DNA of 64,000 bases from Takakia lepidozioides (lineage: Eukaryota > Plantae > Bryophyta): positions 10,168,001 through 10,232,000 of the forward strand of contig CM060733.1 in the NCBI GenBank assembly GCA_030704615.1, given 5' to 3'. Positions within the stretch are counted from its first letter, which is position 1. Each line of letters begins with the position of its first letter. Of the stretch, positions 20,279 through 58,704 are shown in pieces. The notes beneath the pieces were generated by a model that saw nothing but the letters and a program-made list of their open reading frames with translations, was not told where the DNA came from and made no database searches. The translations under genes and the position numbers were made by a program.

Positions 20279-20317
20279 CTTGTATGCTTGTATCTTTCCT
20301 TTCCTTATCATTGTGAT

Positions 20318-26050: not shown

Positions 26051-26068
26051 TGGCGACCATACTGGGGA
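26051..26068 (+). promoter_or_regulatory. primer binding site (tRNA 3'-complementary)
   Basis: tggcgaccatactgggga, 2 bp after the LTR end CA. TGG start and Tat/Athila-like form. The cognate tRNA is not determined. Confidence 0.75.
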
Positions 26069-26658: not shown

Positions 26659-29600
26659 ATGAGTGATGAAAGAGAAGATAGACGCCAGAGATATTCAGTA
26701 AAAAGAGAAAGCTATCTGAAAGCTAATTATCCATATCTTTGGGAGAGAGGAATAGACATAGGGGAATCATCTGGACCTCTCACACCATTAAGATCAAAGA
26801 GTACATCACCCATACCGGAAGAACTAGAGTTGGATGCCACTCCTTCTGTTTCTTTGCAAGAAAGATTAAGGGAATTGGTACGAGAAGAAGATCAATCACG
26901 AGGTGAAAGATCTGAGGTACATCCCTGGATAAAAGATTTGACAGAAATCTTTGATAAGAGTTGGCATGGAACACCAAAAGCAGGAACTCCAGTTTCTGAA
27001 GCGGAAGGTGAAGAAGGAGGAGAGGATGTGGCAGAGCCAACGGAGAGTTCAGACTCTCCAACACCATTACAGTTGAGTTACATGAGTGAAGAAGAAACCC
27101 AAGGACAGAACTTGGAGGATGAAAACAGGGAGAAGAAATTGGAAGAGTATGAAGAAGTAGACCCAACAGCTAAGGTTGAGACTACAACCAGGACATCCCA
27201 ACCCGTTGGACCTGGATCAAGTGGAGCACTTGGATCACAGGCCAACAAAGGTGTCGGCTCAGGGGGATCAGGCGGGCGGCCTGGATCTGGCTCTGGGGTG
27301 ACAGGGAGTGTGGGAAGTAGTGCAACTAAAGCTGGGAATACTGTGAATATCGTGGGGCCAGTAGCAGGGAGTGCTCAAGGGCCACCACTTGGTGGAAGAT
27401 CCACCACAAAAACAACAGGTCCAGAAGAACCAGCACCAGCAACGGTGAGGAAGATGATGATAATGAAGATGGCAGTGATATGCCTGAAGATGAAGAGACT
27501 TGGAAAGATGAGAAGGAACTGCACAAGGAAGTGGCAGATACCATAATGGAAATGCAGAAGAGTATTGATATTCCTGTGGCAGATTCCTCTGATTCTGATG
27601 AAGAAGAAGAAGGGAGTGAGGATGAAAGGAAGAAAGAAGATGCAGGCATGCAAAGTAATGAAGAGACTTTGGCTGAAGTAATATGCCAGACCAAAGCAGA
27701 GATTACCATTGGACAGCTATTGGTTGTGGCTCCTTATTGTAGGCACAAGCTGTATCAAGCAATCAATCGAATTGCCCAGGAGACAGGAAACACAGACCTG
27801 AACAGCTAGGTGACCAGTTATAATGTGAAGCGGGAAGGGCGAGAAACAGTCATGGACTTTGATGATTATATGCCAGTAATCCAATTGAGAATTGGAAGCA
27901 CAGAACTAACTGATGTACTGATAGATGGAGGTTCTGGAGTAAATATCATGACAGACCAATTAAGAAAGAAGCTTGGTCTAAGTAACATGAAACCAGCCCC
28001 ATTTACAGTAACAATGGCAGATCAAAGAAGTGTACAGCCATTGGGATTAATAAGAGGAGTTAAGATACAGATACAGAAAATGATCTTTATGATCACAGTA
28101 ACTGTGTTGAAGATGGATGAAGTCATGGAGGCTTACTCCTTATTATTGGGACGTCTGTGGCTGAAACAGGCCAGGGTATTCCATGACTGGAATTCCGAGT
28201 TACTAACCGTGCATAATGGGATACACGAGATACAAATTACCACAAAGAAATCTAGTAGATTACCTGCTACGAGAAGACCTCGAGGAGTCAGAGAGTATGA
28301 CTCGAAAGGAGGACTGGATGAGGAGCAGGAAGCTACCCTATTTGATGCACACCCAGAGTGGGAGCAGGTTGTAGAGATGCGGCTGGAAAGCGAAAGTTTT
28401 TTTAAGAGGTATCTGCTGTGGTGTAGTGACAGCAACACCAACTGAAGAGGAAACCAGCAGTTACCCATCACATTTCTATGAAGAAAGAGAAGGAGAAATG
28501 GAAATCCTAGAGGAACCAGCCACTGTGAGCTTACAGGATGAAGTGGTGACTGGTTGGACAATCTCAGCTGATGAGCAGGTGAGGGAAGTGAATGTGGGAC
28601 CTAAAGAGGAACCGAGGATGGTGAAAGTAGGAGCTGATTTGGAGCCGGAATTCTTTGAAGAAGCTAAAAGCTTGTTCATCAAATACAGAGATGTATTTGC
28701 TTGGAGCTATGAGGATCTAAAAGGGATACCACCTGAAGTCTGTCAGCATAAGATTGAACTGGAACCAGGGTCAGTACCAATCAAGCAGGCGAGGTACAGA
28801 ATGAATCCCAACTACGCACAGAAGGTTGGAGAAGAGATTAAGAATTTGGCTGAGGCTAAGTTTATATACCCAATAGAGTATACAACTTGGTTGTCACCCA
28901 TTGTTATAGTTCCCAAGAAGAATGGTAAACTAAGAGTATGTGTGAACTACAAGAAGCTGAATGCTTGTACGAAGAAAGATCATTTCCCTTTGCCATTCAC
29001 TGACGCAGTATTGGACACTGTGGCAGGCCATGAGATGTACTCATTCATGGATGGTTTCAGTGGTTATAATCAAGTGCAAGTGGCAGAAGAAGATCAAGGA
29101 AAGACAGCTTTCATCACAGACTGGGGTGCTTATGCATACAAAGTCATGCCCTTTGGACTTTGTAATGCACCAGCAACCTTTCAGAGAGTAATAAGTGAAT
29201 CTTTTCATGAGTATCTGGATGATTTCATGCATGTGTTCTTGGATGATTTCAGTGTGTACAGCTCTAAGAATGAGCACTTGCATAAATTGAAGTTATGTCT
29301 GGCCAGATGCAGGATGAGAGGTCTGGGCTTGAATCTAGAGAAGTGTACTTTCTATGTGAACTCAGGGGTGCTTCTGGGACACATTGTGTGTAAGAAGGGA
29401 CTTCTTATGGATCCCAGGAAGACAGAGTCCATTAAAGCCTCTCCACCACCAGTGAATGTTAAGAGTTTAAGGAGATTCCTTGGGCAAACCAGTTATTACA
29501 GAAGATTTGTCAAAAGGTATGCACAAATAGCAGCACCATTGAGTAAGCTTCTCAAGAAAGATGCAGTGTTTGCCTGGACAGCTGAATGTCAACAGGCGTT

Positions 29601-30686
29601 TGAGGAACTTACACTGTCAGTAACAACTACACCTGTGCTGATTAACCCTCACTAGCATATAGTATTTCATGTTCACTGCGATGCATCAGGAGAAGCGTTG
29701 GGAGCGGTGTTAGCCCAGAATGTTACAGGAAATATAGATTCACTTGTGTACTATGCTAGTAGGTTGATGAACAGTGCTGAAAGGAACTATAGCACAACTG
29801 AAAGAGAAGCACTGGCAATGATTTATGCAGTCAAGAAATTTAGGCATTACCTATTGGGAAGAAAGTTTATGTTTTATGTGGATCATCAGGCTCTAATATA
29901 TCTGGTGAACAAACCTTTGATAAGTGGAAGGATAGTGAGGTGGTTAATAATCTTGCATGAGTTTGAGTTCGAGGTTATTTACAAGCCTGGCCGTTTGCAT
30001 CTTGTAGCGGATCATTTGTCACGACTAACAACAGGAGAGGCCGCCACAGGAGTGGACGATCAGTTACCTGATGCGAGTTTATTTATAATGGAGGTGCAAG
30101 GAAGTGCAGATGAATGGTTAGATTGGCAGTGGTCAATCAGATACTACCTTACTCATGGTCAATGCCCACCTAGTTATGGTAAGGAGGAGAGGAAGAGAAT
30201 CGCTATCAAAGCTTTACCTTATACTATGGTAGGAAGCAGAATGTATAAGCTAGGACCTGATGGAGTACTAAAACGATGCTTGTACCACCATGAAGTAAAT
30301 AAAGTTTTGGAGGAAGTTCATAAAGGAGTGGCTGGAGGTCATTTTGGAGAAGAGACTACCAGTAGGAAGATGCTACTCGCAGGTTACTGGTGGCCTACTT
30401 TGTTCAAAGATGTACACGAGTATTGTCAGAGTTGTGATGAATGTCAGAGGCTAGGACCTTTGCAGAGATCTGGAAGGATGGCCTTGCATCCTACAATGCC
30501 TACGGAACCATTTCAGAAATGGGGACTAGACTTTGTTGGACCGATTAACCCACCAGCCAAGAATACATGGAACAGGTACATAATTACAGCCACTGATTAT
30601 ACTACGAAGTGGGTGGAAGCTAAAGCTTTGAGGGACAACACAGCCAAGTCCACAGCACGGTATGAGAACATACTTACACGATTTGG
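26659..30686 (+). pseudogene. pol: gag-pol of copy B (stops/frameshifts; integrase truncated)
   Basis: VLIDGGSGVNIM protease; KDHFPLP, MPFGLCNAPATFQR, FLDDF RT; RNase H; HHCC; WGLDFVGP. Confidence 0.92.
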
Positions 30687-32159
30687 CCAGTCACAGCTTG
30701 ACACAACTGTCACGACCATAGGGAAAGGATAGCAGGACAGGGAACGACTGTGGGGAACAACACCTGCGAAGGGAACATGTTAGTTCACGGACGACGGTTA
30801 GTGAGGGAAGCGGTTAAGAACAACGGGTAGGAAGATAAAACGGGGAGCAAGGACTGAAGGGGAGCACTTGACGGGGAGCACTTCTTGGTCATGCATGAGA
30901 GGGGATCGGGCGGAGAGCAAGAACGGAAGCAAAGATGGAGAGCACGGTGAAGGAGGAGAGATGATTAGTAGATGCTTGTTATATGCAAAGTTGTAGTGAT
31001 ATTGTAGAGCAGATTAGAGACACAATGGCTTCGGCCTGATACGTGATAAATCATAATCTGATACTTATATGATACAATCACAATGTGTAGAGAGATCTGA
31101 GTGAAGCTGTGGAATGAATGGATGAGTTGATGGAATCCGATAGATTGATGAAGCAAACTGATACTTAATTATCAATAGTAAGGTAGCTAACATGAATGCG
31201 GAAATGAAAACAAATAGGAAACACCCCCATGATACACTAGCTGTAGGTCATGACTGATTGTTCTGAGCGGGCTGAGTACTTAGAGATTTCCAACTCTTCT
31301 ATCTTGGAGTTTCAGCGAAGGGATGGGTGAGTAAAAGCCGCGCAACAGATTGCATGTGCACCAGACTTCCAGCCTGTCTGCCAACCAGCCTGGTAAACCA
31401 GTCTTCTGGCGTCTGAACCAGTATGCTCAACCAGTCTTCTGGTGTCTGAACCAGTCTGTTGTACCATACTGGGACTCAGTCTTCGAACAGTTTGCTGTGC
31501 CAGCCTTCTCCTCAACAAACCAATCTCCCGGTTCTGAACGTGCCTGCACTTGGCTGACCAGTGAGCCTCATGCGGTTTGCCCATCAGACTGGCCATTCTC
31601 AGTACGGTGGACTCTCACTTACTCTACTGACCAGACTTGGTATACTACTAGCCAATGCCATCCGCATGTACTCTACCACTCCGGTGACTCTCGACATTCT
31701 GCTCACCAGTGCAGACTCATGGTTCCCAATCGCATCTGCCAGTCTGCCGGACTGGTCCCAACTCCTCAATCTGTCGGACTCTCGTCAGTCTGGCGACATT
31801 GCACTCTGTCTGCTCACAAGCCTAGGCATACCCTCTTCCCGTACTTTGGCAGTCTGCTGACTCTCGGCTGTTTGCTGACCAGTGGACTCCCTTGGTATGT
31901 TAAACAAAATGATTGTGTGTGCAGGGGTAAGTCCACTTAACAACATGCAGTGAATTGGTCACAAGTCTACAACGACTATTCCACACTGCACTCATATGCG
32001 ACCAATAGGATGTGTATGCAAAGTCATATTTTATTTCGTTGCAAATGCTCAAAAGCATGCTTACATGACAAATGCGTCCTATGGTGCACCTCTAATCTCG
32101 GGCCCAGATGGATATCTATGAGGATGTTGTTTTCTCAGCAGCGGTCAAACCAGTCAAGA

Positions 32160-35788: not shown

Positions 35789-37621
35789 TGAGCGACAGAC
35801 AGACTAAGAATAAGAAAGCAGAGAAGAGCGGAAAAGAGAATGGAAAGAAACCAAAGCACAAAGCACAAAGAGGAAAGCTCACCGGGCGTGTTGCGGAGGC
35901 GGCGGTTGTTGCGACAATTCGGTGCTCACGCGACTGTCCGCGCCTCGAAAAGCTAACACGCACAGAGGAAAGCGGGCTCGCACAAATGGGAGGTGGATGG
36001 GCCCTAAACAAAACAGTGCGAAAGAAGTCCAATGGGAAGTGGAGAACATGTATAACCCTGCATGCGCGGAGTGACGTGGCGAGATTTCACTGGCGCCCCT
36101 TTTTGGCCACCATCGCATTAAATAGATGCAGACCCCGCACACGTGCTGGCGGTATGCCACTGCATGGAAAAACTCGTATGCCACTGCACGGACTATCGTC
36201 AGTCTGCCGTCGTTGCATTCATTAAGTCCAGCAGACTTACTCATGATGACAAAGACGGACGAGCAGACCCAATACCCTCGACAATAGACTCATATGCCAC
36301 CGCAAGGACAGACTGACGACTGAGGTTAAGCGGACTGACAAAGAGACTAAGGCGAGTGCGGAGTCTGATGACGTGCCGCGACGTGACTGGGCCTCCTTAC
36401 CGCCGTCGCTGCATTTATTGCGTCCAACAGATTTAAACCTAATGACATAACGGCCGAACAGACCCACTGCAAACAAACTTGCGCAACAATAGACTCATAT
36501 GCCACTGCACGGACAGTCCAGCAGACGGAAGGTTCAACAGACTGACGAAGAGACTGACGCAGAGTAATTTGCGTGACAACAGACTGATTTCTAACAGACT
36601 AATATCCCAAAAGACAAAGTATCCTCTAGGCGACCGGGTGATACAGGAGTAAACCGTAAACCGCACTTTCTGTCCGAGTTCGGACGTGGCGAGAGATCAC
36701 TGGCGCCCCTTCCCGCCGTCGTTGCATTAATAGGTCCAGCAGACTTACACGTGATCATAATGACGGCTCAACGGACCCAGCGCAGACAGACTTGCGCCAC
36801 AGTAGACTGACTTTGTGACAGTCCAGCTGACTGATATCAGAAGAGACGGACAGACCAGTAGTCCGATGGCTCAGCAGACTCACGACAATGCGGATAATTA
36901 AAAGGTAGTAGTTAAACGGACTCATATCCGAAGAGACGGACTTCCAGCTGACCAACGGTTCAACAGACTGACGAGAGAAGAGACTTCGGGGATATGACGA
37001 GATAAGAGACTTTGGGGATAAGACGAGAGAAGACACTTCGGAATTCGGCAGGTAGTGACGGCCCAGTAGTCCAGTGAAGAACAGACTCGCGCCACACCAG
37101 ACTTGTATCCTTACAGACCAACAGTCCAGTAGACCAGACTGATATCCCATCAGAACCACGCTTGGCGTCGCTGTCATGCCGTGGTTGCATTTCATCCGTC
37201 CAGCAGACTTGCATATGCCCATACTCATGGCACAACACACTGCTTAGAGAAAGTATTGACAAAGACCAGTCGAAGAGCCTGTTGATCCACGCGCATTCGC
37301 AGTCGTAAGGACCTTGAACATCCACAAGCAACGTCAATCCACATCTCTCAGGCTACGTCTCCTTTCCCATTGTCCAGTTTTCAAGGAGACGGTACAACGA
37401 CGCTACCGCGTGAGCGTGTGAGCGTACGCTCACACAATGATGACGTGGCGTGAGCCTACGCTCACGCTGCTGACATGGCGCTGATGCTGACGTGGCGTGA
37501 GCCTGGTCCAGGTCATGCCACGTCACCACAAAGAAGGTGGGCCTATAACCGTGGAGCCCCGAACTGCTGATTTCACCACATGAAGGTGAAACGGATGAAG
37601 GGTTTTGGGCTTCTGGAGTTC

Positions 37622-37853
37622 AACCTTCTGTTAACAGGAGCTTCATTTCGTAGAACTGAAATGAACCTCGTGTCGACACAAGGGGGATTTGGAGAACTTC
37701 AACAAAACCTCGTGTTAACACAAGGTTGTTTTCCTGGAACAAAAATGAACTTCGTGTTGACACGATGTTGTTTTCTGAGAACTAAAATCATCCTTGTGTC
37801 AACACAAGGAGGATTTGGAGAACTTCAAGTAAACCTCGTGTTGAGACGAGGTT
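37622..37853. repeat. six 22-bp palindromes at an exact 42-bp period
   Basis: Units start at 37622, 37664, 37706, 37748, 37790 and 37832, e.g. aacctcgtgttaacacaaggtt. Confidence 0.92.
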
Positions 37854-38035
37854 GATTTGATCATCTGTCTATCTGAAGGTAGTTTCTTGTGTTTGCTAAT
37901 GAAAAGAGAATGACAAACCAATGCGACAAATGCATTGACCCACGCATAGCAAAGATGTTTGACGTCATACATTGAGAGTCACTGGACTTGAATAGTCATT
38001 CCATTACAAGTTGTAGTCAAGGAAAACACCGATTT

Positions 38036-41000
38036 TTATGGGCTTGTATCCCGCTGTAGAAGTGTGTTGACTTCGTTGAAACTCATAGTGGCTTGGTGAA
38101 TGAAGAAGTCGCGCTTTGGATCACAAACCATCCTTCTCAAGAAGACGAAGTAAAGGTGTTTGCACGGTATAAACTTCCCTCTCTTTCCCAAACTACTTGA
38201 AAGCATACCAACAAAATCTGGACATGTACAATTGGGAAAATTGGAAACAATGATTTCGTACGTCCTGTCCTGCAGCGCAGATGCGGATGAGATCATGGTG
38301 AAGACCCAACCATACCCTGGATCAGGCACTTCCATTGTTCCCGCAACACGAGCGTGAAGCATTCTGGCGGACTCAATTTTGCCGTAGTGTTCTGCGGTTG
38401 GAGGGAATCGTCGAACAAGCTTCCCGTTCCGTCTGGTTGGCCACAAGTGAGCGTCAGGCGGAGGTACCCGTGAACCGCTTCCACTTGAAGCACCTTCACG
38501 TGCAATGGAATGTCTGGCTAGGGAGAAACCCGCCTCTTCCAGCATTGCAATCTCTCGGTGAGTGAGACCTGTGCCCATCTTCACAGGCCACACGGTTGGT
38601 GGAGTAGGCTTCCTTACCACGGAAGGCCTCACTGTACCATGCACACATCTCCCACAATCGTCAGCGCAGAACCAGAACTTGTGGTTCTTTGCCTCGCCTT
38701 GTCCGTAAGGGAGAAACAAACCCGTGAATGTAGGAGCTGCAGTGCGTTCTTTCCCTCTGGAGATTAATGATGTACATTTTTCATGATTGGTGGCCCTGAT
38801 CGCCGCGCATTTCACACGAGATCCAGCACTTGTGCGTTCTATATGCCAAACCTCGTCCAAGCCCATGGACTCGATTATATGCGGCACCACGTTGTGGTCT
38901 TCAACCATTGCAGTGACAATGCTTGATGCAGGGGTCCGGTTTGGGCCAGAGTAGCCCTCACCTGTGGATGTTCCGCAATTCCATCTCTGATCCAAGTGAA
39001 CACGTGGCGTCGAGAAGTTCACCCTGTCCGGCCTATGGGAATCTGCATCCGATCCGGGAGGGGTGTCCAATTTCCGTTTGCAAGACCCGAATCTTTCTTC
39101 GCCTTCCAGATGGGGAACTCTTCCCACGAGAGGGGTGCCATCTGCACATATGCTCACTGCCCGCGCTATTTTGCTGGGATCCCCTGATCTTCTAGCTGCT
39201 CACAACATCAACTCGCTCCTGTCCGGACCTTTGCCACCAAGGCCACCCCTCAAGAATGACCTATATCTGGTTTGCTGCTGCAGAGCACGAATGAGGTCAT
39301 CGGCCGTCGCCGCATACAAATCTCTCCCTTTTTTGCCGGATTGTTGCAACCAGGCATTGTGCACTGTCTCTGCAAGATTGCAAGAAGGCATGTCCGCCAT
39401 CTCCTCAATGGACATATGCTGCAAGGAAAAAAAACAGAAACCCGATATTAGGATTGGACCCTGAAAGATATATCCGAAGCACCCAAACGAAGGTGAATAC
39501 AAACCACTCACCGTTGTCATGGCCGCTCCCCACTGTCGGTAACGGAAGTGCCAAAATGCGAACCAGTCTTGTAGTGCCCTCATGCTGTCCTCCGATGCCG
39601 CTCCAGATGAGTACCACCAGGCACGAATTGTCTGGAACAATGTATTCGCTTCCCCCATAGTTTTGGCGTCCTTGTACTGGTTGCACAGTTGGCGATGCAT
39701 AGTCTGCATATCTGGCTTGATGTATGTCTTTGTGTGTTTGTCCAGGGATTGTGTCCAATGGAAAAGACATGTACGTTCTCTTCCAGGCATTGGCACTTTT
39801 GGGTCTCCCGTCCCGAACACAATGCGGACAGCGTTGAAGTTAGCTTGAGCACTATCGGCCATGAAACCAACGAAATTGGGAGATGGGAGACCATTGGAGG
39901 CCATAACTCGAATGAGAGCTTCCCACATGAGCTGTTGTGAATCTGTGTCCTCTGACTGCATGTCACACACTGCAATTGTCATGACCCGCTGGTACACAGG
40001 GTCGTAAACATGACATGCCATTGTGGTCCAGTCTTTAACCCTCTTGACATGATCGAACATAAGGAAGCAGTTGCCAAGATCACCACCCTTCTGCATACGT
40101 TTATCCAGGCTGACCCCGCTGCCCTCACCTTTTGTGGACATTTTGAACAAGAACACTTTCCTGGCTCCTTGTCCCGGGAAAACGCTGTCTTGGATGTAGT
40201 CATACATGCTCCTTTTCTTCAAATCCATAATATTGTCCATATAACCTCGGCTCCCAGAGCCCATTCTTAAAGCGTTCACCTGATTCCTAATGTTTGGAGA
40301 AGTCAAAGTTGAGAAATGGTCCATAACAGTGTCCAAAGCCGATCCCTCCAGTATTCCTCCAACCGAATTTGATGCACACAGAATACGGCTTTCCAGAAAG
40401 GACTTGCTCGCCCCCATGGCAATTGCAGATGTGGTTCCAGTTGGATTGGTATCCAACTCTTGCCTTATCAGACGCGAGACTGTGTCAACGCTCTCCCTAT
40501 AATCCCCCTTGGACACAGGGTGGTTGTGAAAACCGAAATGGACACAGGCTCTAGTCAGGGTTTTGAATCGATGCACCACATAATACATTCTGGCGCCACA
40601 CAAAGCAAGGCAGCAAGGTGGTACCCTACAGAACTTGCACACAAAAGTGTTACTGTATGGTGGTGTCCCCCCAGGCTTGAATGGATTCTCACTGACACCA
40701 TCCCATTCGCTTTGGTTTTGCACACCTGACAATGCGAAGTGTCTGCATTTCATATTCTCGCATTTCAGGTGCCCATTACAGACTGTTCGCCTGAATATGA
40801 GTTTGTCGTTGTTGTGAATATTGGAGGTTTTTGTGCGGCACCAAGGGTGCCCATCGTGCTTTTTGTCCATTCCTTCCAGGAGACTAGAAATGCCCCCCAA
40901 GCGACCAGGAGGAGGCAGCTCGAAAACAGTATTACCATCAAAAGATTCCGGCAAGAATGCCACCCTCTGAATATTGAAAGTGCTCCAGTCTATCCCCCTC

Positions 41001-41538
41001 AACTCACTCTTGAAACCTGCCATCCCTCCATGGCTTTCAGTTTAGGAATGACACTGGTGATCTCCTCCACATCTGCTTCTACAGGTGGACATGGCTGATC
41101 CACGGGCGGTATTGCACATGTGTCATCGGAGGATGAGTCCGAAAGCTCAACTACAGTGTTAACGGTACTCATCTCCTTCTTGACAACCACGGGTGTTTTC
41201 TCCTGGGCCACTGATGCTGCCGTGCCAGGAGTAAGGAAAGATCCTGCAGACTGTCTCAGAGGGGCACTGAGCACCCTGTATCTGCCTGGAGGCACTCTCC
41301 ATTGTGTGGCTGGTGTAGTATGCGAAGGTTTCTGGAACACGTACTTGAGAAGTTTTCCATTGCCATCGTACACTTCCCTTTGAAGGAATAGAGTTCCATT
41401 TTCCAACCGAAACTGCGTTGCGAGGACGTGTTCATGCACCAGCGCAAAACCATCATCTTCCACCTCGTAAGAAAATGGCACAGGGTGGTCCTCACTGAAG
41501 AAGTCCGCGTCAAGGCAGCCCATGGCTTGGGAGGCCAT
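38036..41538 (-). pseudogene. MULE transposase: GCM-like zinc DNA-binding domain, DDE core, SWIM
   Basis: WCRTKTSN...CNGHLKC...CxxC...CGAR...HFGFHNHP; MFDHVKR; FMADSAQAN; CLFH; CNLAETVHN; CTCPDF...PCKH. In-frame 93-bp GT-AG intron at 39419-39511, one in-frame TGA at 39200-39202, and a frameshift at ~41020. Confidence 0.85.
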
Positions 41539-42261
41539 ATGTCGATGTTGCTTCAGAAAGTAGAGTTCACAGTCCGACCGTGCTTGTGAATGCAAATTGT
41601 GTGGGAGCGGAGTTTTTGCAGTCCTCACAAAGAATTACAGGTATCGCTCCGGCTTGCAGATCTCCTAACGCGGGTTTCCACTTCTGTGAAATGTCTCCCC
41701 ATGAAAACCAAGCGCATGGTCATAATGTCAGCCCTAATCCTAGAATCCAACTGTTTTTTCACAAGTGCCCCACCAGTGCATTCGTTGACAGATTGACTGA
41801 CAGAGCCGCCGTTTGGTTGTCATGTCAGAGAGGCCAGAAGAGATGCCCATTTCCATTTAATTTTAACGGCACCTACACCGCTATACAACTGTACACACTT
41901 GACATTCCTCTGGAACATGCCAGAATAACGAACTTTTTCAGATGGGAGGTGATTAGACCCCAACGGTTTTTGAATGGATGAGGATCCAATGATCTCCGTC
42001 GATATTTCATAACGATTAGATGGACACGTGTTCGCCATGCATGTGGAATGAGTCAGTGGCGCACTGAACGTTGCGAGCGAACATCTTGGCGTTGAAGGCC
42101 TTGCGATGAACCTCCCATAGTCCTCTTTTTTCCCTCTTCTCGTTATTGTCTTTACAACCCTGGATTCTGCAGAGACGGTGACCCCATTCCGAGGGAGAAG
42201 CAAGCGTCGAAGAACACTTTATTTCACATCAAAGAAGCAAAGGGCACGCGCTAAGGAGAGG

Positions 42262-45200
42262 ATGAGGAAGGCGAGACGGGAACTTAGAATGGGAGAAGAA
42301 ACATCCGGCGTAGAGGAAGACGAAGGGCAGAATAGGATTCTGCAACCGCAGTGTGGAGAGGAAGGTCTTGAAGTGATCCCGGAGGCGACCGATGAGCAAC
42401 CTCCAATAGAAGGGGGGGAGGACGAGGAAGTGAGCTGGGCTAGGGAGGAAGCACTGCAAGTAGAGAAACAGGTCTTCAAAGAGCAGGGAGAACAAACGGA
42501 CGCGGAAACGATGCCGTCTGCCCTTGTTTCGCACCATCGGGACCTCCTTGGAAGCATGCTACCTCCAGACGAAATGGAAAGATTGAATGCGTCAGGAGCA
42601 TCATCAAGTGCAAAGAAGAAACCGGAGGTGGCTATGAACTCTCTTTCTCTCTCTCTGATTCTTTCTGGTTCTTGCTAAGCATTGAGGTCGACATCAACCT
42701 TGCGTCAACGCAAGGTTGAAGTCGACCTCCCAAGTGTATATATTGTGCATGAAAACAGTGCAGATGCTGCTCTACAATCAAGCTAGACAGACATGGATGC
42801 TTGCGACGCATCATCAAGTTCGAAGAAGAAGAAGACACAGCAATCAACTTTTCCTGTAGCTTTTGTGTGTGTTCAACACCGATCCGAGAGCTCTCAGCAG
42901 ATGAAGAGGTGTGCTGAGAAGAAGACAAGCACATGGTACAGCTTGACAAGGGAGGCTTTTCTTGAGTACATGTACACTGTAAGCTTTTTGACACCTTTTG
43001 CCTGTTAATACTGCAAATTTTGTGATGAAATTGCAGTCTTTGATTCTTTTTACCTGTTATGTATGCAGCAAAAAATAGCAGAAACTGGATTGAAGGCGAA
43101 AGCATAGTACTATGATTCCCACACAGAAGAGCAGCGGTCTGCAACTGGGCTTGAGGACATTATGAAGTTCGAGATGAAAAATCAAAGGAAGAACCTCATG
43201 AGTGCATTCGACAAACAGATCCGGATAGCAGACCCAGGTCTTGGCACGGAATTTCTGGAACAGGTGAAAGCACACTATGATAAGTATGGCTCCAAGCCAG
43301 AAATGACTCAAGAGAAACTACATCGCCTTTCCATTTCAATGGTGGACAATGCAACCAAAATCAGGTGGTTGGAGATATGGAATTCGGATCCTCTTGTGAG
43401 AGACACGAACATGTTCCCAACTCCAGAGAGGGACCCGAAGACACAAGCAATAAGAGTTGTTAGCGACCATACATTCGACCAGTGGCTACACAAAGCCACA
43501 GTCTGGAGCCAGGTAAGGTTTGAACCAAACCATTTTCAGACATTTTTGATGCTCCGTAACCTCTTGAAAATTCTTACGAGCTTTCTTGTTGCAGTTAGAA
43601 AAACGCGCAGTGGCTGCACTTGCTGAGTCGATGGCAGACTACAAAATCCAGATGGCTTGCCCCCGGATCACACTGGAGGCCTATATCAGGAGATGGAAGC
43701 TCGCTGTCTGGAACAACTGCTTCTTCACGGAGTTTGAGAAAGAGAAAGGAATCTCCAGGTCTTACGAATTCAAAAACCAGTACAACAACGAGCAAGCAAT
43801 GAAGCGAGTGTTGTACAGGTGTGACCTCCTTGAATCAAAATTGGTGCTTGAAGGGCATGTTTCTGCAATCTTGTGTCGTTCTTTCCATAAAGAATTGCGA
43901 ATTTGCAGTGCTTTGCGAGATCTCTGAGGGCTCTGCATGTGCAGTCGAGCAACATTGCGTTAACGCAAGGTTGTTTCCCATTGTCCTGGTTTCCCTTACC
44001 TATACCTAAGTATCCCATAATGCCATTTTTCTGAATGTGAAAGGGGATAAACTGATAGGAAAATCAGCCTTGCGTCAACGCAAGGTTGATGAAGTGGCAG
44101 GCTATGTAGCTTTTCCTGTTGTTTTGGGTAGTTCAAATCCAGTTCCAATGCTGCCAAGATGAACATAAGACTGTTTGGAGTCGGTTTGAAATGCTATTTA
44201 CAACTTTCACTGTACCAACAAACAGCCTTGCGTTGACGCAAGGTTGTTTGGCGGTATGGATTGCTGGAAATTTCCCGTAGCCATCCCCCGATTTCAATAC
44301 AATTGTAGGAAACATATGATTATCAGATACCATTGACATGTGTTTCAACAGAGGATTTCAACATTGCGCCAACGCAATGTTGAATATCCGCACCAGTACA
44401 TAGTCTGATGGTAGTTTTCAGGCAGTGTTTTCCATTTCCTCTCTGAATGAAAACAACCTTGCGTTGAAGCAATGTTGAATTGCGCTTCTCAGTCGTTGTC
44501 TCTATTAATACAACATTATCATTTGGTGTTCCCCATTTCTGCTCGAATGAACATTGCGTCAACGCAAGGTTGATTCGGGATTTCAAAAGTAGAATTCTCA
44601 GTGTTGCCTTCCTGCATTTCAATATCTTTTTCCGGATGTGTGTTCTTTTTCGTTTTCTGATCGAATGACTGTCTGGGTTTTTTGTGTGTGATTCAGGTAT
44701 ATGTATCATATCCTCATACCGGGAAAGTACCTTAGCGATGACCCAGACTTCATCTATTCATGGGCTGACCCCTCCAATGACAAGACAATGTACACGGCTG
44801 GTATTGCCAAAGACTGGAGCAGGGCGCACTTCCGAGACTGTGGGTGGTACCTCGACCTGCCAAAACAGGACACCCCATTCGATGAAGTTGTTTTGAGAAA
44901 CCTGAACGACAATGCCGCAGCGATTGCCCCATTGGCTGAGAAAGACATCCAGCACAGAATCATTTCGGCTCTGGCTGCAAAAGAGCCCGAGAAAACTGCT
45001 ACTCCAAAACGAAAGGGGAAGGTTGTCAGGGATCCGAAGGGGAAGGGGAAAGTGCAGCTCCGCAAGGACATGGACCGTCAGAGGTTCCTGAAAGACAGCC
45101 TTCTCCTGCAAGGAGGGATAGGAGAACTTCAAAGTCCAGGGAGCAAGTTTTCGAGGCGAGAGAACATCCCTCCAGGGTTTTGGGCCAGTTCAATCGTAAG

Positions 45201-46432
45201 GTGCTGAATGAAAGTTTTCTTTCAATGATGGAGTCGAGGAAGTCCACATTCAAAGGGGTGCCCTCAAAATCGTGGGACATGCTTGTTTCGTTCCTCACTC
45301 AGGTGAAAACTTATGTCTAAACTGTTGTATGAATAATTGTGTTTGGCAGCTTGTTGTGGCTTGTCCAGGGGATTGATCTCCTGTTAGATTTGGATTGGGC
45401 TTCTTACAATGTCTCATGTTTTTGGCTGTAGGTCACAAAAAGTCCGGAATGGGTGAATGGAGTTCAACAGGCATACGCGACTGACCTTGTGGTGCTGGAC
45501 ATTCCTGACGGTTTTGCTGTCCCTGATGTGTTTCCTTCCAATTCGACCCCGACTTGGAACAAATCGGATTCTCGTTACTGGCAGTGGGCTTTCTCGTTCA
45601 GCAACAAGTTCCTTTCGGACTCGGGGGCTCTTCTTCTCATGCAGTCAAAGGACATGTCGGCTCGAAGAACTCTTTTCAGCTACATGAAAGCTTCCGGGTT
45701 TCGTGTCATCAAAACTTGGACATGCATCAATACTCTGCCTCTTACGAAGGGCGAGTTCCCGGGGCAGAAAGTGAGTTGGTTCCTTTCAATTGATGTTTCG
45801 TGGTTTTCCGGTAAATCAAAATGGTGGGTTATGTCTTTTGTCTCATTCCCTCTTCGTGATTAATGACAGACACGAGTGTTCGAAGCTTTGTGCCTGGTGA
45901 GGCGGACGGACACTCTTCCTGCTGGTGTTGCTGAGTTTCAGTTGAGGGACCTTGCAGCTCACATTGACCCCACCTGCGAGCCTGTGGAGGATGATGTTAT
46001 CTTCAATTATGTCGACTCGGGTCGGACTATGAAAAGGACAAATGGTGTCCCTTGGAGAGGTGCACGGGAGAAATCTCCAGCTTTCATGCAGACTTTGGTG
46101 GAGACATGCAGCCGTCATGGTGGACGAGTGGTTGACTTGTCTATGGGCACAGGTGGGGCCCTTCACATTGTGTTTGACATATGGGCAGTGACCTTAGGGA
46201 AACCTGGTTTTTATTTCTTGTTCTTCTTGGATTTGCAGGAGCATGTTTTCATGCTTGCAAGAGCGCCGGAAGGCACTTCTTCGGCATGGAAGCTGATACA
46301 GAGCTCTTCTCAAGCGAGCTTCGTCAGCTTGAGTCGGGCACTACTTCTGCCCCATCCACAGAGGGACTTCTGGAGGAGCCCGAAGCGCCTGACGAGGATC
46401 TGGACGTGGACTCCGATTTTGAGTGTGAGTAA
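42262..46432 (+). pseudogene. multi-exon gene with C-terminal beta-class N6-adenine/N4-cytosine DNA methyltransferase-like domain
   Basis: GT-AG exons 45432-45770, 45870-46152 and 46239-~46430 splice in frame to DLVVLDIPDG...FLSDSGALLL...W...AREKSPAFMQTLVETCSRHGGRVVDLSMGTGACFHACKSAGRHFFGMEAD. Upstream exons (~42262-42627, 42763-42978, 43069-43511, 43595-43818, 44698-~45200) encode an unassigned region with an in-frame TAG at 43105. Confidence 0.75.
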
Positions 46433-47849
46433 GTTCTTGTGTACTCGTGCAAAATATGTTACATTTCCTTGTGTCGTTCCCATTCGAGAAATAGTGGCTT
46501 CCGTTGTCTATATCTGGATGTTAACATATACCACCATTTCTCTTCTTGCTTTGCAGAGTTCAGCACCAGTCATCGAATCAGCAGACGCCTTTCGGTTTCC
46601 AAGGATACTACATGTCCCCGAGTCCCCCTAGATCCAACCGCTTGCCGGTTTACACGGAAGCTTGCGCACGGGTATTATCCGAACAAACACTGTACTCGCA
46701 TCTCCATGAAGGTCGAGGAAAAAAAAACCGTCATGGATGTGCTGCTGTATTCATAGATGATATTGCTGTACACTCTGGAAGTGGTTCCTCTGAAACCTCG
46801 AATATTTCTTTAGGTTCAAGTACCGAGGCTCAATAAATTGTATTTTGGTTTTGCTTCCATCTCCAAACTGTTTTTCAAGTTCTTTGCGCGTTCCCGTAAG
46901 TACAGTTGGGGATTGCCTAAAATAGGTCTTCGGATTGCGGAATTGAAAAATGATTGTGTGTTGGAATGAATGTACTGCTTTGCCCAAAAAAAATGTTTGA
47001 TTTTAATATTCAGTTCTCTAGTGGACGATCTCCTCATTCCAAAGTCATGACCTCAATCATAATTCATCCGCAAACCTGCCATTGTTCTCGGCCACAAAGA
47101 ATATTCATGTGGGGGCCTTGAAGAGGGATAAAAAATTAGGACATAGGCGACAGCTGATCCGCGGTAATAGGGGGGGTAAGCACGGAATTACGGCCTGAAC
47201 ACGTGGAAGCTGGCTGACGTGGCGTGAGCCTAGCCAGGCTCACAGGCTCACAGGCTCACGCGGCCAGGCTCACGCGCAAGCATTCCCCGGAGACGGTAGT
47301 GGTTGAGATGTGATGTTTCAGGAAGTGCATCTGGATGTTTGAGGACCTTTGGACTGGATCCTGTTCCGTTCACACTCTCCGCAGTTCCCAGACATGTGGT
47401 GGCAGAGACGTCCTCCCCTGAACAGTCTCATCGGTGGACATAAATTCTGCAATGTATACACACCCCCACGTGCATATGCTTCCGCGATTTCCGCTATCGT
47501 GTTACCAATGGTTTCCTGCTCCATACGAAGGAGCTCAGACTTGGACACACACCACAAACCGTAAACACATGCAATTTTTCCACATATCGTCCTAAAAAAT
47601 AAGCACGTCAGCACAAAACGAAGGCGAAAATAGTTAAAGCATATGCACGATGGTGGCTGTAGAGCCCCGCCAGCCCTCTCATGTTCAGGCACACCCTTCA
47701 TCGTCATTAAAATCGCCCTAAACAAGAAGAACAGCCGCATGCGTGCAAAGTCACCTCCGCAACATTGGACAACAAAGAGCCGCAAGAACGAGACAACAAG
47801 AACGAGTGGGCGAGTTCGTGGCAGGATGTTACGATCTTCCATGCCCTAA

Positions 47850-48224
47850 ACATGGATGGCGCGGATGGGTTTCTCAGAATGGACGATCCAGATCCTTCGG
47901 CCGGCGTGGACTGGCAGACTGGGTGGCAGCAGACGGGCTCATCGGACTGTTGGGTGGACTTGCCGGGACTGGCACAACGGACTGGCGTGCACAACAAACT
48001 GGCGATTTGGCGGACTGAGGGGAACTGGACTCACGGGCAGCGGACTGGCCGCGCCGGACTGGGGGCGAGGCTGCCGCGAGCGCGTCTGGTGGGCCGCGGC
48101 AGCAGCTGGGCGACGGGCGGGCGGGGGGGGGTCCGGGTGGGGGGAGCCGGGCGTCCGTGCGCGGGGCCCACCGGTCAGCTCGCGCGTACGCCATAACGTC
48201 CCAATTATTGTAAAATGAGAGGCA
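47850..48224 (-). repeat. right TIR of outer MULE
   Basis: Reverse complement of 21174-21522 with indels. Confidence 0.9.
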
Positions 48225-50487
48225 CTAATTACCATCTTTCATCCATAGATTTCAACCATACAACATTGTACCTAGCTTGGTTATGCATCACATCTCCAAA
48301 TTTGACAGGATTCCACCATAGAAATAAAAACATTATAATGCCTTTGTGAAACCTGCCAGAATTTGAGCTCCCACACAATACTCCTACAAAATTATGGTTT
48401 GACCATAACAAATTGTGGCTCTTTGTAATTTTCATTCCCTCTGGACCCACAAATTCCAAGGCACTGGTGCAATCACTAGCTCCTTGCAAATTTTAGGGCC
48501 ATATGAGGGTTTTTTCTATAGGCTGTTTTGTATAGGTGTATGTGGGAAAATTGAATGGTGACACGAGCTTCCAACCGAGGTGCAATGTGTCCCAACTTTT
48601 GGAAAAAACTGGACGGTAGATGTGTGGGTGCCATGCTAATGCCCCACAATGTAAATCCATTTAAGCAATTTAGTAAATTATTGGGAAATTTTTGGCCCCT
48701 GACTCTTGTAATATTGTTTTGGGACCCACAATTGGACTTCAGGCGGGGCTCAGGGAGGATTTTCCGACAGAATATTCCGTTTTTGGTGGGGGCACGTCCC
48801 ACCGTGTGCCACCCCATGCTCACTTGACCCGACTCACTCTCATGTATCACCGTGCAGGCAATGTGTCGGCACCCGGCAACCCTAAGTATGAACCTAATAA
48901 GTATGAAGTCAGACAAGGTGGGCCGCCGCATGCAGTCTCACCCTAGATTGGGACGACAGCCGATTTAGTGCACGTACCTGCCACCTGTCCAGTCAACTCA
49001 AGAAAAGCAGCCCGTTTTGGGTAGTGCTCACTTCTGAGTCCTGACGGACAGAAATTCGCCCATGCCACAATTCTTAATTTTAATATTTTCAGGAGAGATT
49101 CCTGAGAGGGAGAGCTCGATTTGTCTTTCAGAGGTCATCACCATCTGAGAGCATCTGCGGATGCTACCCACGAATCTCCCAAAGCAAGCAACCCGATTCG
49201 AGTGATTGGGTTAAGTGTGATCAGTGCTTATAATTGATATTCTGCCCTCTTTTATGGTAGTTGCACTATTACCACTTGGCAAACAATTATTTTTGATAGA
49301 ACCCCTCAAAAAGTGTCATTGGTCATAGGGCTCTGGATGCACTCAAGCATTCTTACTTTGGAACCCTACAACTTTGCATAGATTTTTTTCCAAACATTTT
49401 TCTTTTAATTTAAAGGAAAACATGTGGGAGCGACAGCTCACAAATCAGGCCCCTTAATAACAGTGAGAGGAAAAAATAACCTCTTTCACTGCGAGCCCTA
49501 TGACCGCTTAGAGGGCAGAGTCGACCAAACATGGCCCGTTCTTGAGGGATCGTGATTTGGAACACTCCAAAAAAGAATCTTACTCTCAAAGAAGTCCCAA
49601 CAAACCTTGCTACAGACTTCACCGCTGTCAATATTTTGATTGGCGAAAAACCTTGGCTCTCCGAGGGTACCCTCGCATGGGACACCGCCCAAGGGAAGGG
49701 GGGAGAAGAACATACCACAGCCATCAAGGTACCTAGATTTGACCCCAGAATCATCTGGATAGGACTGAGTGCACTATCCAACGAGCTCTGGACTATGTAG
49801 AATCAAATACATAGTTGCAAGTGTGTGGGAAGTTGCCCCATACATTGGACACCTTATGAATTACTTCGGGTAAAAATAACAAATTTTCACAGTTGGATTT
49901 TTCATCATCATATGTGAACGGTCATAGGCCAACATACCCCTTCCATATTTTCTTCTCATTAATTCAGTTTTACAAATCTTCCCTTGTTGTGGGAACTTTT
50001 CATCTCATGCTGCTAGTGGCGTATGGCTCCTCTTTGTGAATAGCAAAATCGACGCGTAGTCTCCTCCTTAGAATAGGAGGAGCCGACAATAAAGCTCCAC
50101 CAGGTTACAGCATCTACCACGACATAAAATATCATTTGTAAGTAACATAAAGGTCCATGATACTAAAGATTCTCTGCTTTGCGAGGGCAAATGATGAGAC
50201 AGCAAGAAACAGAAGAAAGGGAGAGAAGATGGTGATGGGCATGGCAGGGTGCATGCGTGAATCGTAGAGTGGAGTGGCAACAGAAAACAACAAAGGAAAG
50301 AGTTTGACTTGCAACTCTGCAGACTGCGGCTGTCGGTTCTTCTCCTGCCTCGCTCGCATTGCTGCAAAAAGCCGCATCAGTGTGTATGGATTTTACAAAG
50401 GTGGACGCATGCAGAAGCAGCTTGAGCGACATGGGTGGTGGGATTTTACTCGTGGTGATGAAGGTAAGGGTGGTGGTGCTTTGAGGA

Positions 50488-53093
50488 ATGGAAGCGATGC
50501 AGGGGCAGAGGAGCGCAGGGATTTCTGATGAGACGTTGGCATGCGTCTTCAAGTACATAGAGAGTGCAGAGGAGCGGGCTACGGTGTCGCTGGTGTGCAG
50601 GCAATGGCGGCGAGTGGATGGCAACACCAGGAAGTATGTCACCATTGCCAATATTTATGCGATTGCGCCCTCGGCGCTGTCCAGACGCTTCAAGACATTG
50701 GAAGGCATAAAGCTGAAAGGAAAGCCTCGTGCTGTGGAGTGGGATCTGCTGCCGGAGGATTGGGGTGGGTATGCGGGCCCATGGGTGCGAGAGCTGGGCA
50801 GAGCTTATACTGGCCTGCAGACGCTACAGTTGCGGCGCATGGAGGTTGGTGATGCCGACTTGCAGCTGCTGGCGATGTCGCCTTGCAGTGCTGCCTTGCA
50901 GGTGCTGCACCTCCACAAGTGTTATGGCTTCTCCACACGGGGTCTCGTGCCCATTGCTCGCTCCTGCAGGTTAGGCAGCTTGGGCATTTTTTCCAAAATC
51001 CTGGCATGCTTGTCATTGACATCTTCTGGTTGCGCAGAGTGCGGGGAGGGCTAATTGCAAGTCTTGGAAACCCTACGTGCTGACAGCCAGTAGGAGTTTG
51101 GTCCTGATGGCTTTTAGAGTAGGAAGAATGAGACTTTGGTGGCAAGGGATTGTCTCAGGAAGAAAAGTGAGTAGCGAAGTGTATTTTCCGTGGGTTCCCA
51201 TGAGCTTCTCTGGGCCTTTGCTGGCTGCAATATAGAGATTGGTCTTCCTCTGTTACTGTTCTCATAAGCAGAAGCCTAGTTTTGTGGGCGAAAGGAGCAT
51301 TCTAGTGGCCGACACTATCATGCACGTGAATATGCTTTTGTCTTGGGAATAATAGCAGGTAGTGCGTTTAATTCTCAAAAGGGTTGTTTGAACACTGTAG
51401 TAAGATTCATTTGTTGAGCTGTCATGTTCTTCTTGTTTTTTCAGATCCTTGAGAGTCTTGAACCTAGAAGAAAGTGTTGTGGCGGATGACGGTGGGCAGT
51501 GGTTACATGAGCTGGCACAATACAACTCAGTCTTGGAAGTGCTGAACTTTGCAGTGCTGGGCATGAAGGACATTGATATGGCGGATTTGGCACTTCTTGT
51601 TGAGAGATGCAAGTCCCTGGTGTCACTGAAAGTGAGTGATATCGACGTGGTGGAAGTGAGCAACGTTTTGAGCAAATCAACTTCTCTGTTGGAGCTTGGG
51701 GGAGGGTGTTGTAGCAGCCTTGGAGACCACAAGGGAACACCTGTTTGCCCTGACCTACCAAAACGAGTAGTGTCATTGTCAGGTCTATGGGCTATGACTG
51801 ATGTTGGGTTGCCGATGGTACTTCCTTTGAGGGAAAATCTGAAGAAGCTTGACCTTAAATTCACTCTTCTAAGTGGTGAGGGGCATTGTGAGCTTCTCGG
51901 TCACTGCTTTGCTCTTGAAGAGTTGCAGGTACAGACCTGTCACTTGGAAATACTTGGTATGTTTGTCTCTGATATTCACGTGCCTTCGGCCTGTGCAAGC
52001 TGAAGACCCAGGAGTCAGATCTGGATTCCGCACTATCTATGCTACAATATAGATAGATTCAAAGCACACCTACCTCTCTCTTCTTCCATTTCTCCTTCGC
52101 CTCCCGAGCATGGCAAAGCATCTACAGTGGGTGTGTCTGCCTCTCACTTTCTTGTGATGTTATTTGGGGTTAATCTTTATCTTCTGTGGAGAGGAGTTAT
52201 TTGCTTGAACTGAAGTTGGCCTCCATGTCCTGGAAGGCGCTTTTCTATGGTATATGTTCTCTTGGACTAAGGTAGCCTGGTTATGTGACTGGCATTGGGG
52301 TGGATAGGTACGCAATGTCCTAGGTGACAAAGGCATGGAAGTACTGGCCAGGACATGTACGAGGCTCAAGCGCCTGCGAGTAGACTATGATGAAACTGGC
52401 TTCATATCACAGAGAGGTGTAATTGCAGTGTCACAAGGTTGTGGACAGCTAAGGCATCTGACCTTGTATGTGCGGAATATCACTAATGCTGCGCTGGCTA
52501 TGGTTGGACAAGGCTGTGTGAACCTCACAGATTGTCGCTTTGTGCTGGAGGCAGCTCTAGAACCTGTTTCTGACCTGCCCCTGGATGATGGTGTCAAGTT
52601 GTTAATGAGAGGCTGCGTAAATCTAACTCGATTTGCGCTGTATCTCCGGCATGGGGCATTGACAGACACAGGTTTGGCCCACATCGGGACGTACGGAGGC
52701 AAGCTAAAGTGGTTGCTGATAGGTTGTGCAGGGGAGAGTGATGTAGGTTTGTCTAATCTTGCCAAAGGATGCCAGCAGCTGGAACGACTGGAAGTGCGCG
52801 ATTGTCCCTTTGGGGAGGCAGGGTTGGCACTTGCGATTGTGAAGATGAGGGCTTTGAAGTATCTCTGGATGCAGGGGTATCGGGCAACAGATGCTGGTGG
52901 CCACCTACTTGCCCTGTCCCGCCCATGTCTGAATATTGAGATTTTGTCTGCATCAATGGAGGAACCAGTACAGCTGTTGGCATACTATTCACTAGCAGGG
53001 CCACGCACTGATGGTCCACCTGAGGTGAAGGTGCTTGTCTCAAACGCAGACAAGCGGTCACAAGACATGCTTACCTTTTCTATTAAGTGCTGA
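50488..53093 (+). CDS. COI1-like: COI1-family F-box/LRR protein (583 aa; exons 50488-50969, 51445-51928, 52308-53093)
   Basis: F-box SLVCRQW; KGKPRA..WGGY; LPLDDGV; RFALYLR; LEVRDC; YLWMQGY; LAYYSLAGPRTD. GT-AG introns at the conserved TIR1/COI1 positions. The spliced 1752 nt stay in frame. Confidence 0.9.
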
Positions 53094-57266: not shown

Positions 57267-57440
57267 GTATCTCTACCTAACAAAGCAGAAAAAGGCATTG
57301 TCAGGATCCTTGGGTGCATTGTAAGCAAACAATTTGACACGTCACCAGGTTTTAGTTTTATTCGCGGCTATATAGCCAATCAATTCTACACCCATATGAT
57401 ATGTCTCCACATATTAGCATACATATACTCGCTACATATT

Positions 57441-57755
57441 GTGGTTTCTATTAATTAATTGATTCATGTTTGCCGTTTTTTTTTTGGGGGCCCTGCATTT
57501 GCAGAGCCCACTATTTATTAATTTAGTAGGTAGGAAGAGGGGGGGCATCCCATATATGCCCGCCCACCCTAGGACCCTTCTAGAAGGCCCTGGACACATG
57601 TCAACCCTACAAGACTCCCTACTCTAAATTTGGCCAATTCCTCCCTTTTTTTTTGGGACCCATCTCATTCCTTAATACACGTGCCCTTCCTACATAAGGG
57701 CCCCACTCTAATTCATGGGCCACAGTAATTCCTGGACCACCCTAGAATCAGGGCC
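57441..57755 (+). repeat. single-arm copy of the 865-1711 foldback family
   Basis: gtggtttctattaattaattgattcatgtttg...ctagaatcagggcc matches 1331-1688. Confidence 0.85.
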
Positions 57756-58704
57756 ACATGGGTTACCGAGCCATGTGGAGAAATAAAAACCCAACCCACC
57801 ACCCAACCAACCTTTACAGCCAGGGTATGCAAAATTGAGAGGTGCCTAACGCACTCTGGGTCAATCGCTCAATCAACTGGTTCACCTGAACGCTCAATCA
57901 ACTGGTTCACCTGAACTTATGCGGGCGAAGAAGGCCGAATCAGAGTAATTGCACAGAATGGGACGGCTTTTCCCATACCACAATGCAGACATATCCAAAT
58001 GAAATAGTCAGTGTGGCCGACCCTGCCAATATAATAACTTTTACAGCATCTTGGATCCATGGATTCAAGAGAACATACAAAGAGTTTTGGCTGGTATCCC
58101 AGCCACACCACTTAGTTGGTCATCCATCTGCCTTATGTGAATCCAAACCAAATTCCTCACTAGTGCTTCCCAATCTTCTATCCAAACTGCCCAACATTTG
58201 CATACCAAACTGGGCCTCGTTTGTACCTGTGAAGCTGCACAAAGGTCCTACCCAAAGGGTATAGAAGGGCCGGCAGCACCGACGGATATTGGAAAAAATT
58301 ATCTACAGACTCCAGCATGGCAGATACCAGTCCAAAAGGTGGATAGTATTGCAAAGTATCGAATGAAATGTTGGAAGGAGCCTACACGGCTGAGATTCCT
58401 CCTGTACCCATGGGTCAATCCCTCTGCCGGGAAGCTGATTTGCCCTGTAAAAGTCATCAGATTCCAGAACAACTGACAGCTCCAAATACAAAAAGACAAA
58501 GAAAGCCGCTGCAATGAGTCCTCAAGGGCCTGTTCGTATAATTCAGATTGATCCCTCCCAACCTCAGAGCAGAACCCAGGAATCTGTGGAGATAGACACG
58601 GGCACAGTGAATGCCCAGCAAACCTGGTAGAACTAAATCTTTACAATACAAGGACCCAGAGAGTACCACTCTAAATCATTTGGAACTAACTGGGAGAGCT
58701 TTCA

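Follow-up and report, generated by a model that had tools for sequence, protein, structure and literature searches.

A transposon with recurring palindromes

The stretch of DNA analysed here, called the window throughout, comprises 64,000 nucleotides of contig CM060733.1 from Takakia lepidozioides (assembly GCA_030704615.1, positions 10,168,001 to 10,232,000). It contains a broken copy of a repeated family of Mutator-like DNA transposons, which carries a transposase pseudogene, a spliced accessory gene on the opposite strand, and a 22-bp palindrome that recurs both in an array near one end of the element and within the accessory gene. Judged from their sequence and arrangement, these palindromes are probably dyad binding sites of the element's own accessory protein, with anti-silencing as their likely purpose. 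The features of the element are as follows, in window positions.

37386 to 37394, plus strand: left target-site duplication (TSD), GAGACGGTA, 9 bp, or 10 if the shared G (37385/47289) is counted
37395 to 47289: Mutator-like DNA transposon of 9.9 kb, a broken member of a repeated family, lacking long terminal inverted repeats (TIRs)
37622 to 37853: subterminal array of six palindrome copies of the GTGT..ACAC type, starting between 37622 and 37832, 42-bp period (4.0 helical turns)
38036 to 41538, minus strand: transposase pseudogene of the Mutator-like element (MULE) type, from a Pfam SWIM match, homologues and alignment; putative start codon
42121 to 46432, plus strand: spliced accessory gene of a ParB-like plus amino-methyltransferase-like family; 5' end uncertain
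Remnant ~42889-42978, then 43069-43512, 43599-43818, 44697-45195, 45432-45770, 45870-46152 and 46239-46432, plus strand: predicted exons of the accessory gene
42684 to 42729: extended 46-bp palindrome holding the motif copy 42696-42717, in a predicted intron (42628-42760)
42889 to 42894, plus strand: putative internal deletion point, homology to exon 2 of relatives starting abruptly at 42889
43819 to 44696, plus strand: GT..AG intron of 878 bp holding six palindromes
43951 to 43972: palindrome copy, matching the pattern
44066 to 44087: palindrome copy, 115 bp (10.95 turns) from the copy at 43951
44224 to 44245: palindrome copy, 158 bp (15.05 turns) from the copy at 44066
44360 to 44381: palindrome copy, 136 bp (12.95 turns) from the copy at 44224
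44455 to 44476: palindrome copy, 95 bp (9.05 turns) from the copy at 44360
44550 to 44571: palindrome copy, 95 bp (9.05 turns) from the copy at 44455
45432 to 46340, plus strand: beta-class amino-methyltransferase-like domain, from the family profile and from PF01555 in homologue P0188
47290 to 47298, plus strand: right TSD, GAGACGGTA, found by the TSD search

The earlier note on this DNA had described seven copies of the palindrome in the accessory gene, and a scan of the window recovered all seven with 0 to 3 mismatches, together with one more site at 37706; the same pattern gave no match in 100 dinucleotide shuffles of the window. When family copies were counted at up to 6 mismatches, 13 were found, six in the array, which lies downstream of the transposase near the left end of the element, and seven in the gene (42696 and 43951 to 44550). 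All 13 lie within the 9.9-kb element and none inside an exon with protein homology, and the palindrome is absent from the remaining ~54 kb of the window, including other repeats and a host gene, in agreement with what the note had said of the exons and of the rest of the window. Its statement that the palindrome occurs only in introns stood for the six copies of the large intron and failed for the six copies of the same family that form the array. In the alignments with the homologues P0136 and G001:C58, the homologue continues unbroken across a point at which the window contains 878 additional bases, beginning with GT and ending with AG, so the six palindromes within these bases are intronic. 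The copy at 42696 presumably lies in an intron as well, as a GT donor at 42628 and a pyrimidine tract suggest. The last intron of the accessory gene is spliced in two related contigs of a probable RNA run, and none of the RNA contigs spans the intron around 42696 or that at 43819-44696.

Symmetry, spacing and constraint of the palindromes

The palindrome at 42684-42729 has 22-bp arms with a single mismatch and carries two additional GTCGAC words, at 42687 and 42721, as the earlier note had reported. The symmetric change that it saw between the genic copies (GCGT..ACGC) and the array copies (GTGT..ACAC) was also found, the switch position reading C-G in 7 and T-A in 5 of 12 aligned copies (array copy 37622 was left out of this alignment). 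Over all 13 copies, the fixed or nearly fixed positions form mirror pairs, C3/G20, T5/A18, G7/C16 and T10/A13, and non-pairing letters are tolerated at positions 4/19, which together argue for reading of the sequence more than for base pairing. This bears on the highly unlikely alternative that the palindromes act as hairpins in the pre-mRNA and affect splicing or small-RNA production. The palindrome-bearing intron does fold far better than its shuffles (z=-7.0) and the arms covary across the 12 copies to a degree that 0 of 500 shuffles reach, yet any palindrome would score so and the covariation largely reflects the split between array and intron copies. A.G and C.T mismatches recur at positions 4/19, copies also occur downstream of the transposase and, in a relative, upstream of the start codon, an Rfam search gave no match, and the 10.5-bp period in the spacing of the copies is a property of B-DNA.

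This period was seen in the six copies of the large intron, which are spaced in phase at 10.5 bp (R=0.98; p=1.5e-4 with the period fixed, p=0.008 with the period scanned from 10 to 11, the two 95-bp steps being counted as one). In a scan from 6 to 16 bp, 10.51 came out as the best period. The palindromes also show signs of constraint. In the seven genic copies 13 of 14 CpGs are kept, compared to an observed/expected CpG ratio of 0.67 in the element. Among family contigs of one run, none of 20 variants at a share of at least 20% falls inside the motifs, which make up 18% of the bases (p=0.018). A centre of GTYRAC type was considered as a HincII-type methylation target and dropped, as the centres in relatives read GG-NN-CC; a further count against such a target is that motif copies, with their extension, account for 12 of the element's 19 GTYRAC sites.

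The seven genic copies share 86% identity within the 22-mer and 32% in their flanks (ungapped). The earlier note had called these flanks unrelated, which these identities support in part. The spacers of the last three units are still weakly alike (best pair p=0.002, uncorrected, one of 90 comparisons) and two of the spacings are equal at 95 bp, so the flanks are probably decayed repeats. Motif and flank identities form a decay series, from 1.00/0.85, 0.91/0.53 and 0.89/0.45 in relatives to 0.86/0.32 in the window element. The copies do not behave as an independent miniature inverted-repeat element with its own TIRs and a consistent target-site duplication, a possibility raised in the earlier note: a flanking direct repeat of at least 5 bp within 14 bp is missing at five of the seven copies, and the repeats at the other two differ, one of them being self-complementary.

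Decayed tandem repeats or tiny insertions could also have left the palindromes as a neutral by-product, their symmetry being kept by hairpin-templated repair or by conversion among the copies. Relatives do show plain tandem repeats of palindrome units, joints between motif copies are seen in contigs, and symmetric extensions specific to single copies were found at 20 of 35 flank pairs (permutation p=0.027; p=0.086 without the first copy). We nonetheless consider this origin improbable, since repair keeps symmetry and not the same letters 7 kb apart with spacers of 32% identity, and since it leaves unexplained both the whole-turn spacing of unequal spacers and the retention of CpGs; the lack of consistent target duplications speaks against it as well.

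The accessory gene, the transposase and their relatives

The family of the C-terminal exons of the accessory gene has 44 further representatives (45 matches, one of them spurious), the only named homologue being from the moss Ceratodon purpureus. A moss homologue, P0188, carries PF01555. The best match in a search with the family profile was DpnA (E=2.1e-8), and the profile aligns D-I-P-E with the DPPY of CcrM (E=3.1e-5). In the window, motif IV reads DIPD in place of DPPY and motif I reads DLSMGTG. All 18 distinct related exons retrieved with a search pattern in which D and P/F were fixed and the fourth residue was free have D-x-P-E or D-x-P-K at motif IV; in motif I the D, the last G and the following acidic residue are kept and the F and the first G are lost. 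The accessory gene thus departs from the motif IV of active enzymes, (D/N/S)PP(Y/F/W), and since this motif is altered relative to the SPPY of active eukaryotic relatives, catalysis by the domain appears doubtful. A search for longer homologues of exon 43111-43512 returned nothing, a single-sequence fold of P0187 was of no use at a pLDDT of 35, and the middle domain, modelled at a pLDDT of 67, resembled no known fold, a structure-atlas search with this model being blank. The nine element frames scanned contain no match to a VANC-type or PMD domain of Pfam.

Upstream of these exons, three of 49 metagenome loci (L003, L004 and L010) and the contig G001:C58 have an exon with a DGNHR motif. A language-model feature search placed this exon near ParB_N at 0.92 (a family found on 32% of cluster members) and near DUF3723 at 0.95, and it is likely that the exon encodes a ParB-type DNA-binding domain. 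In the window, the abrupt start of homology at 42889 points to a loss of sequence. Other family copies run on after 42893 into another palindrome copy, which lies 204 bp after the 42696 copy; a second species has 956 extra bases at the 42893 junction, and the distance from the start codon of C58 to the matching point is 862. With good confidence, we attribute this to an internal deletion of ~0.95 kb in the window copy, which likely removed one more palindrome and the ParB-like exon. An old internal duplication of ~200 bp is also visible, in which an exon end, GCATCATCAAGT..AAGAAGAA, is repeated (42560-42630 and 42780-42840).

Palindromes were then sought in 48 related loci found through the methyltransferase-like exon; left out were L048, which matched weakly on a contig of 181 kb, and L050, which has the transposase only. 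The palindrome of the window does not recur in these 48 loci; near-matches, restricted to its core, occur singly at three scattered places. A different palindrome, CTCGG-NN-CCGAG, gave 34 matches in 10 of the 48 loci, compared to 0 to 5 in 20 shuffles; these loci served both to choose this motif and to count it, and only its occurrence in G001:C58 is an independent find. None of the 34 matches falls in exon-like sequence, though such sequence makes up 44% of the bases. The palindromes of relatives lie within repeats of 73-75 bp or 126-129 bp, before and after the accessory gene, with spacers decayed to varying degrees. G001:C58 contains a whole accessory gene, DGNHR exon included, and four palindromes 106-109 bp apart immediately upstream of its start codon. 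Both palindrome types have arms of 10-11 bp, a 2-base centre and CpG in the arms; that they share a common descent is a guess. Further tandem arrays, with periods of 85, 102, 35, 70, 82, 36 and 45 bp and without the CTCGG core, lie downstream of the accessory gene in L032 (2272-4843), L040 (4815-5714) and L045 (1774-2509). Three intron-bearing contigs with plant-type transposons (L050, L057 and L058, that is, G001:C80, C58 and C134) come from a bacterial genome bin, most likely as contamination.

Symmetry, phasing and conservation point to reading by a protein without telling whose protein it is, and one core is common to distant clades of the accessory protein; both facts would fit recruitment of a transcription or chromatin factor of the host, the accessory gene being merely a neighbour. 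Such a factor, being conserved, would not favour a motif that differs sharply between element families, and the motif is missing from the other 54 kb of the window. This explanation is, in our estimation, improbable too.

The ends of the element were fixed by an empty-site joint, 37384 to 47289, which contigs in three of four public runs carry with the element missing; the flank of the element is itself repeated, and the joint therefore does not show polymorphism. In the second species, a related copy ends at 37395 and 47288 between different flanks, and a single contig of 9,055 bp carries the transposase and the accessory gene in the same order. Contigs of more distant relatives are too short to show a transposase beside the accessory gene. 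Similarity between the ends is short and degenerate, with four of the first 30 terminal bases matching (ungapped), which makes the element of non-TIR type. The 9-bp TSD falls within the 8-11 bp given for MULEs in the sections cited of PMC6446971, and a SWIM finger without TIRs fits non-TIR MULEs.

The transposase pseudogene has a frame change near 41020-41029, an in-frame TGA near 39200 and a predicted intron at 39419-39511. Its SWIM finger lies near 38134-38242 and satisfies the Pfam cut-off (E=1.7e-4). The transposase has 144 homologues, and candidate conserved D, D, CxxH and E motifs were picked by eye in an alignment. None of 39 family members matched the Pfam MULE model, a PDB profile search with the transposase was blank, and viral contigs gave no match for the accessory exon, the palindrome or the transposase. 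Clusters of another short repeat (GTGAGC, TGACGTGGCGTGAGCC) occupy both ends of the element (37408-37515 and 47215-47275); this repeat, which differs from the palindrome, is a candidate binding word of the transposase. Some contigs join 37505 to 47246, which may point to very small derivatives of the element that arose by internal deletion.

These ends matter for the possibility that the palindromes are sites of the transposase, replacing long terminal repeats for end pairing or self-activation. The element does lack long TIRs, one of the arrays is subterminal, and in Arabidopsis a Mutator transposase by itself is reported to activate cognate copies, in the portion cited of 10.64898/2026.08.24.746577. 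However, the seven genic copies are 2.7-5.3 kb from the nearest end and inside the accessory gene, the arrays of relatives hug the accessory gene on both sides, the ends of the element carry a different short repeat, and the transposase contig L050, followed to 550 bp past the stop, has no array. The transposase is thus an unlikely reader of these sites.

Outside the element, a spliced F-box/LRR gene of TIR1/COI1 type (50485-53093, plus strand; Pfam Transp_inhibit and F-box_5) lies 3.2 kb from its right end. A GC-rich repeat is present in two copies, ~89% alike, in opposite orientation and 26 kb apart (21174-21660 and 47840-48224). A fold-back element of ~850 bp with nested inverted arms occupies 865-1711, with a partial second copy at 57435-57760. 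The region 11800-31400 contains two related LTR-retrotransposon bodies, separated by 16.7 kb, as well as three LTR-like copies that carry 10-bp arrays of CACAGCC type. The observed/expected CpG ratio is 0.31-0.36 in this retrotransposon region and 0.67 in the Mutator-like element.

A putative self-recognition system and its known counterparts

The earlier note had proposed that the palindromes are selected cis-targets of an element-specific trans factor, by reference to VANC and the VANDAL elements of Arabidopsis. Confinement to the element, dyad symmetry, phasing, variant avoidance and the palindromes of relatives all speak for the first part, and the reference to VANDAL/VANC stands as an analogy. 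In the mechanism that we propose, the sites would have arisen by tandem duplication and been retained while their spacers decayed. A dimer of the predicted ParB-like and methyltransferase-fold fusion would read the two half-sites of each palindrome, and the whole-turn spacing would set the bound dimers on one face of the helix, where they could load cooperatively or spread. With the aromatic residue of DPPY lost, the methyltransferase fold would more likely grip or shield DNA than methylate it. The bound protein would mark the element as self and likely prevent its silencing, thereby protecting or activating it. As the gene of the window copy is broken, with a TAG near 43105, and is without the ParB-like exon, this copy would depend on protein from intact copies.

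Several points weigh against this proposal. The ParB-like exon is absent from the window element, and its presence in intact members of the family is deduced from lengths (956 bases, 862 being needed). The identity of that exon as ParB comes from the DGNHR motif and one feature search, profile searches with it against Pfam, PHROGs and PDB being blank. The CTCGG core is missing from 38 of the 48 related loci, many of which are short and some of which have other repeats; some of the 10 palindrome-bearing loci are near-identical pairs; and the JGI loci with the ParB-like exon (L003, L004 and L010) show no palindrome within their 3-5 kb. Since the same CTCGG core goes with distant clades of the accessory protein, tight one-to-one co-evolution is unsupported. 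The transposase travels with the same palindromes, as would suit transposase sites. The test for helical phasing was made after the spacings had been seen; ten other spacings, mostly from relatives, are not phased as a set (p=0.34, with 110 bp taken for the C58 step of 109 and the 107 step omitted), and the extra 204-bp unit of other family copies is out of phase. Finally, three of the six motifs have a depth inflated 3-5 fold, and variants may be hidden there.

The parS site of bacteria is palindromic. A bolder and distinctly tentative extension of our proposal is a parS-like self-recognition in transposons of seed-free plants, in which a ParB-type nucleotide-binding clamp joined to a rewired methyltransferase fold would load at phased, family-specific palindromes, spread, and either shield the element from 5mC or write a non-canonical mark through D-x-P-E. 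Bacterial ParB and the phage fusions of ParB with N6N4-methyltransferase, in the part cited of 10.1101/2025.10.10.680097, resemble the proposed protein in the ParB-type fold predicted for it, with a GxxR-like box (DGNHR in relatives), and the phage proteins also in the fusion to a methyltransferase. By contrast with ParB/parS, the window family has no ParA partner, no helix-turn-helix was identified in it, and its gene is eukaryotic and spliced.

A self-binding ParB-methylase design has already been proposed for algal transposons. In Sola1-1_Ec32 of the brown alga Ectocarpus, in a layout like that predicted for the window family, a ParB-like plus N4/N6 methyltransferase gene lies opposite the transposase and is proposed to bind and modify its own element, according to PMC12477816. 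The main text of that paper does not contain the string 'palindrom', and the parts cited describe no altered catalytic motif. Sola1-1_Ec32 is a Sola-1 element with a 4-bp TSD and a 282-bp TIR (PMC12477816), whereas the element described here is Mutator-like, has a 9-bp TSD, belongs to a land plant, carries D-x-P-E/D and has 13 mapped sites. In Plavaka elements of Bostrychia, the ParB-like accessory genes PAG2/PAG3 stand beside tandem inverted-repeat arrays proposed as ParB-like binding sites, a PF01555 methylase is also carried, and homologues of PAG2/PAG3 occur in Mutator elements of Chondrus, by the account in the sections cited of 10.1101/2025.02.11.637652. These elements are of EnSpm type and combine ParB with a 2OG oxygenase and a methylase with SET in separate genes (same source and sections); in the window family, ParB-like and methylase-like parts belong to a single gene, and introns hold dispersed sites as well.

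VANDAL elements, in the sections cited of PMC5735166, resemble the window element in being non-TIR and Mutator-like, in having an accessory gene and in carrying family-specific non-coding motifs, which accumulated, through the formation of tandem repeats, in introns, between genes and in terminal regions. There the motifs are 9-base words such as YAGTATTAY and anti-silencing is proven, compared to 22-bp palindromes and a proposed role here. Membership in VANDAL/VANC was rejected, the accessory gene having a methyltransferase fold and no VANC-type Pfam match (VANC was compared by Pfam only); the resemblance is an analogy in layout. MpDN4MT1 (10.1101/2021.02.12.428880, in part) and the rotifer N4CMT (PMC8885841, in part) share the permuted PF01555-type fold and bacterial origin, and differ in being host genes with an intact SPPY and shown 4mC activity. 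The accessory family rides a transposon and reads D-x-P-E/D/K in all relatives seen, and this catalytic motif rules out identity with either enzyme. No description of such a system from a land plant was found in the literature, subscription papers and bioRxiv supplements being thinly covered.

Escape from host DNA methylation has been shown for few transposon systems, namely VANC, TnpA and the Mutator transposase. The ParB-methylase cargo of algae has been proposed to act on its own elements, and the target sites were neither defined nor tested in the accounts cited above. The broken state of the window copy limits the value of this particular locus. The candidate sites of its family are exact, symmetric and family-specific, which makes a test of binding to cognate and swapped sites simple, in plants that include model species. 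If the proposal is true, it would provide a protein-site pair that can be programmed to give epigenetic protection locally, and an instance of the ParB-type fold put to use in eukaryotes; and if the parS-like reading holds, these transposons would represent a second anti-silencing system of plants, of bacterial origin and independent of VANC.

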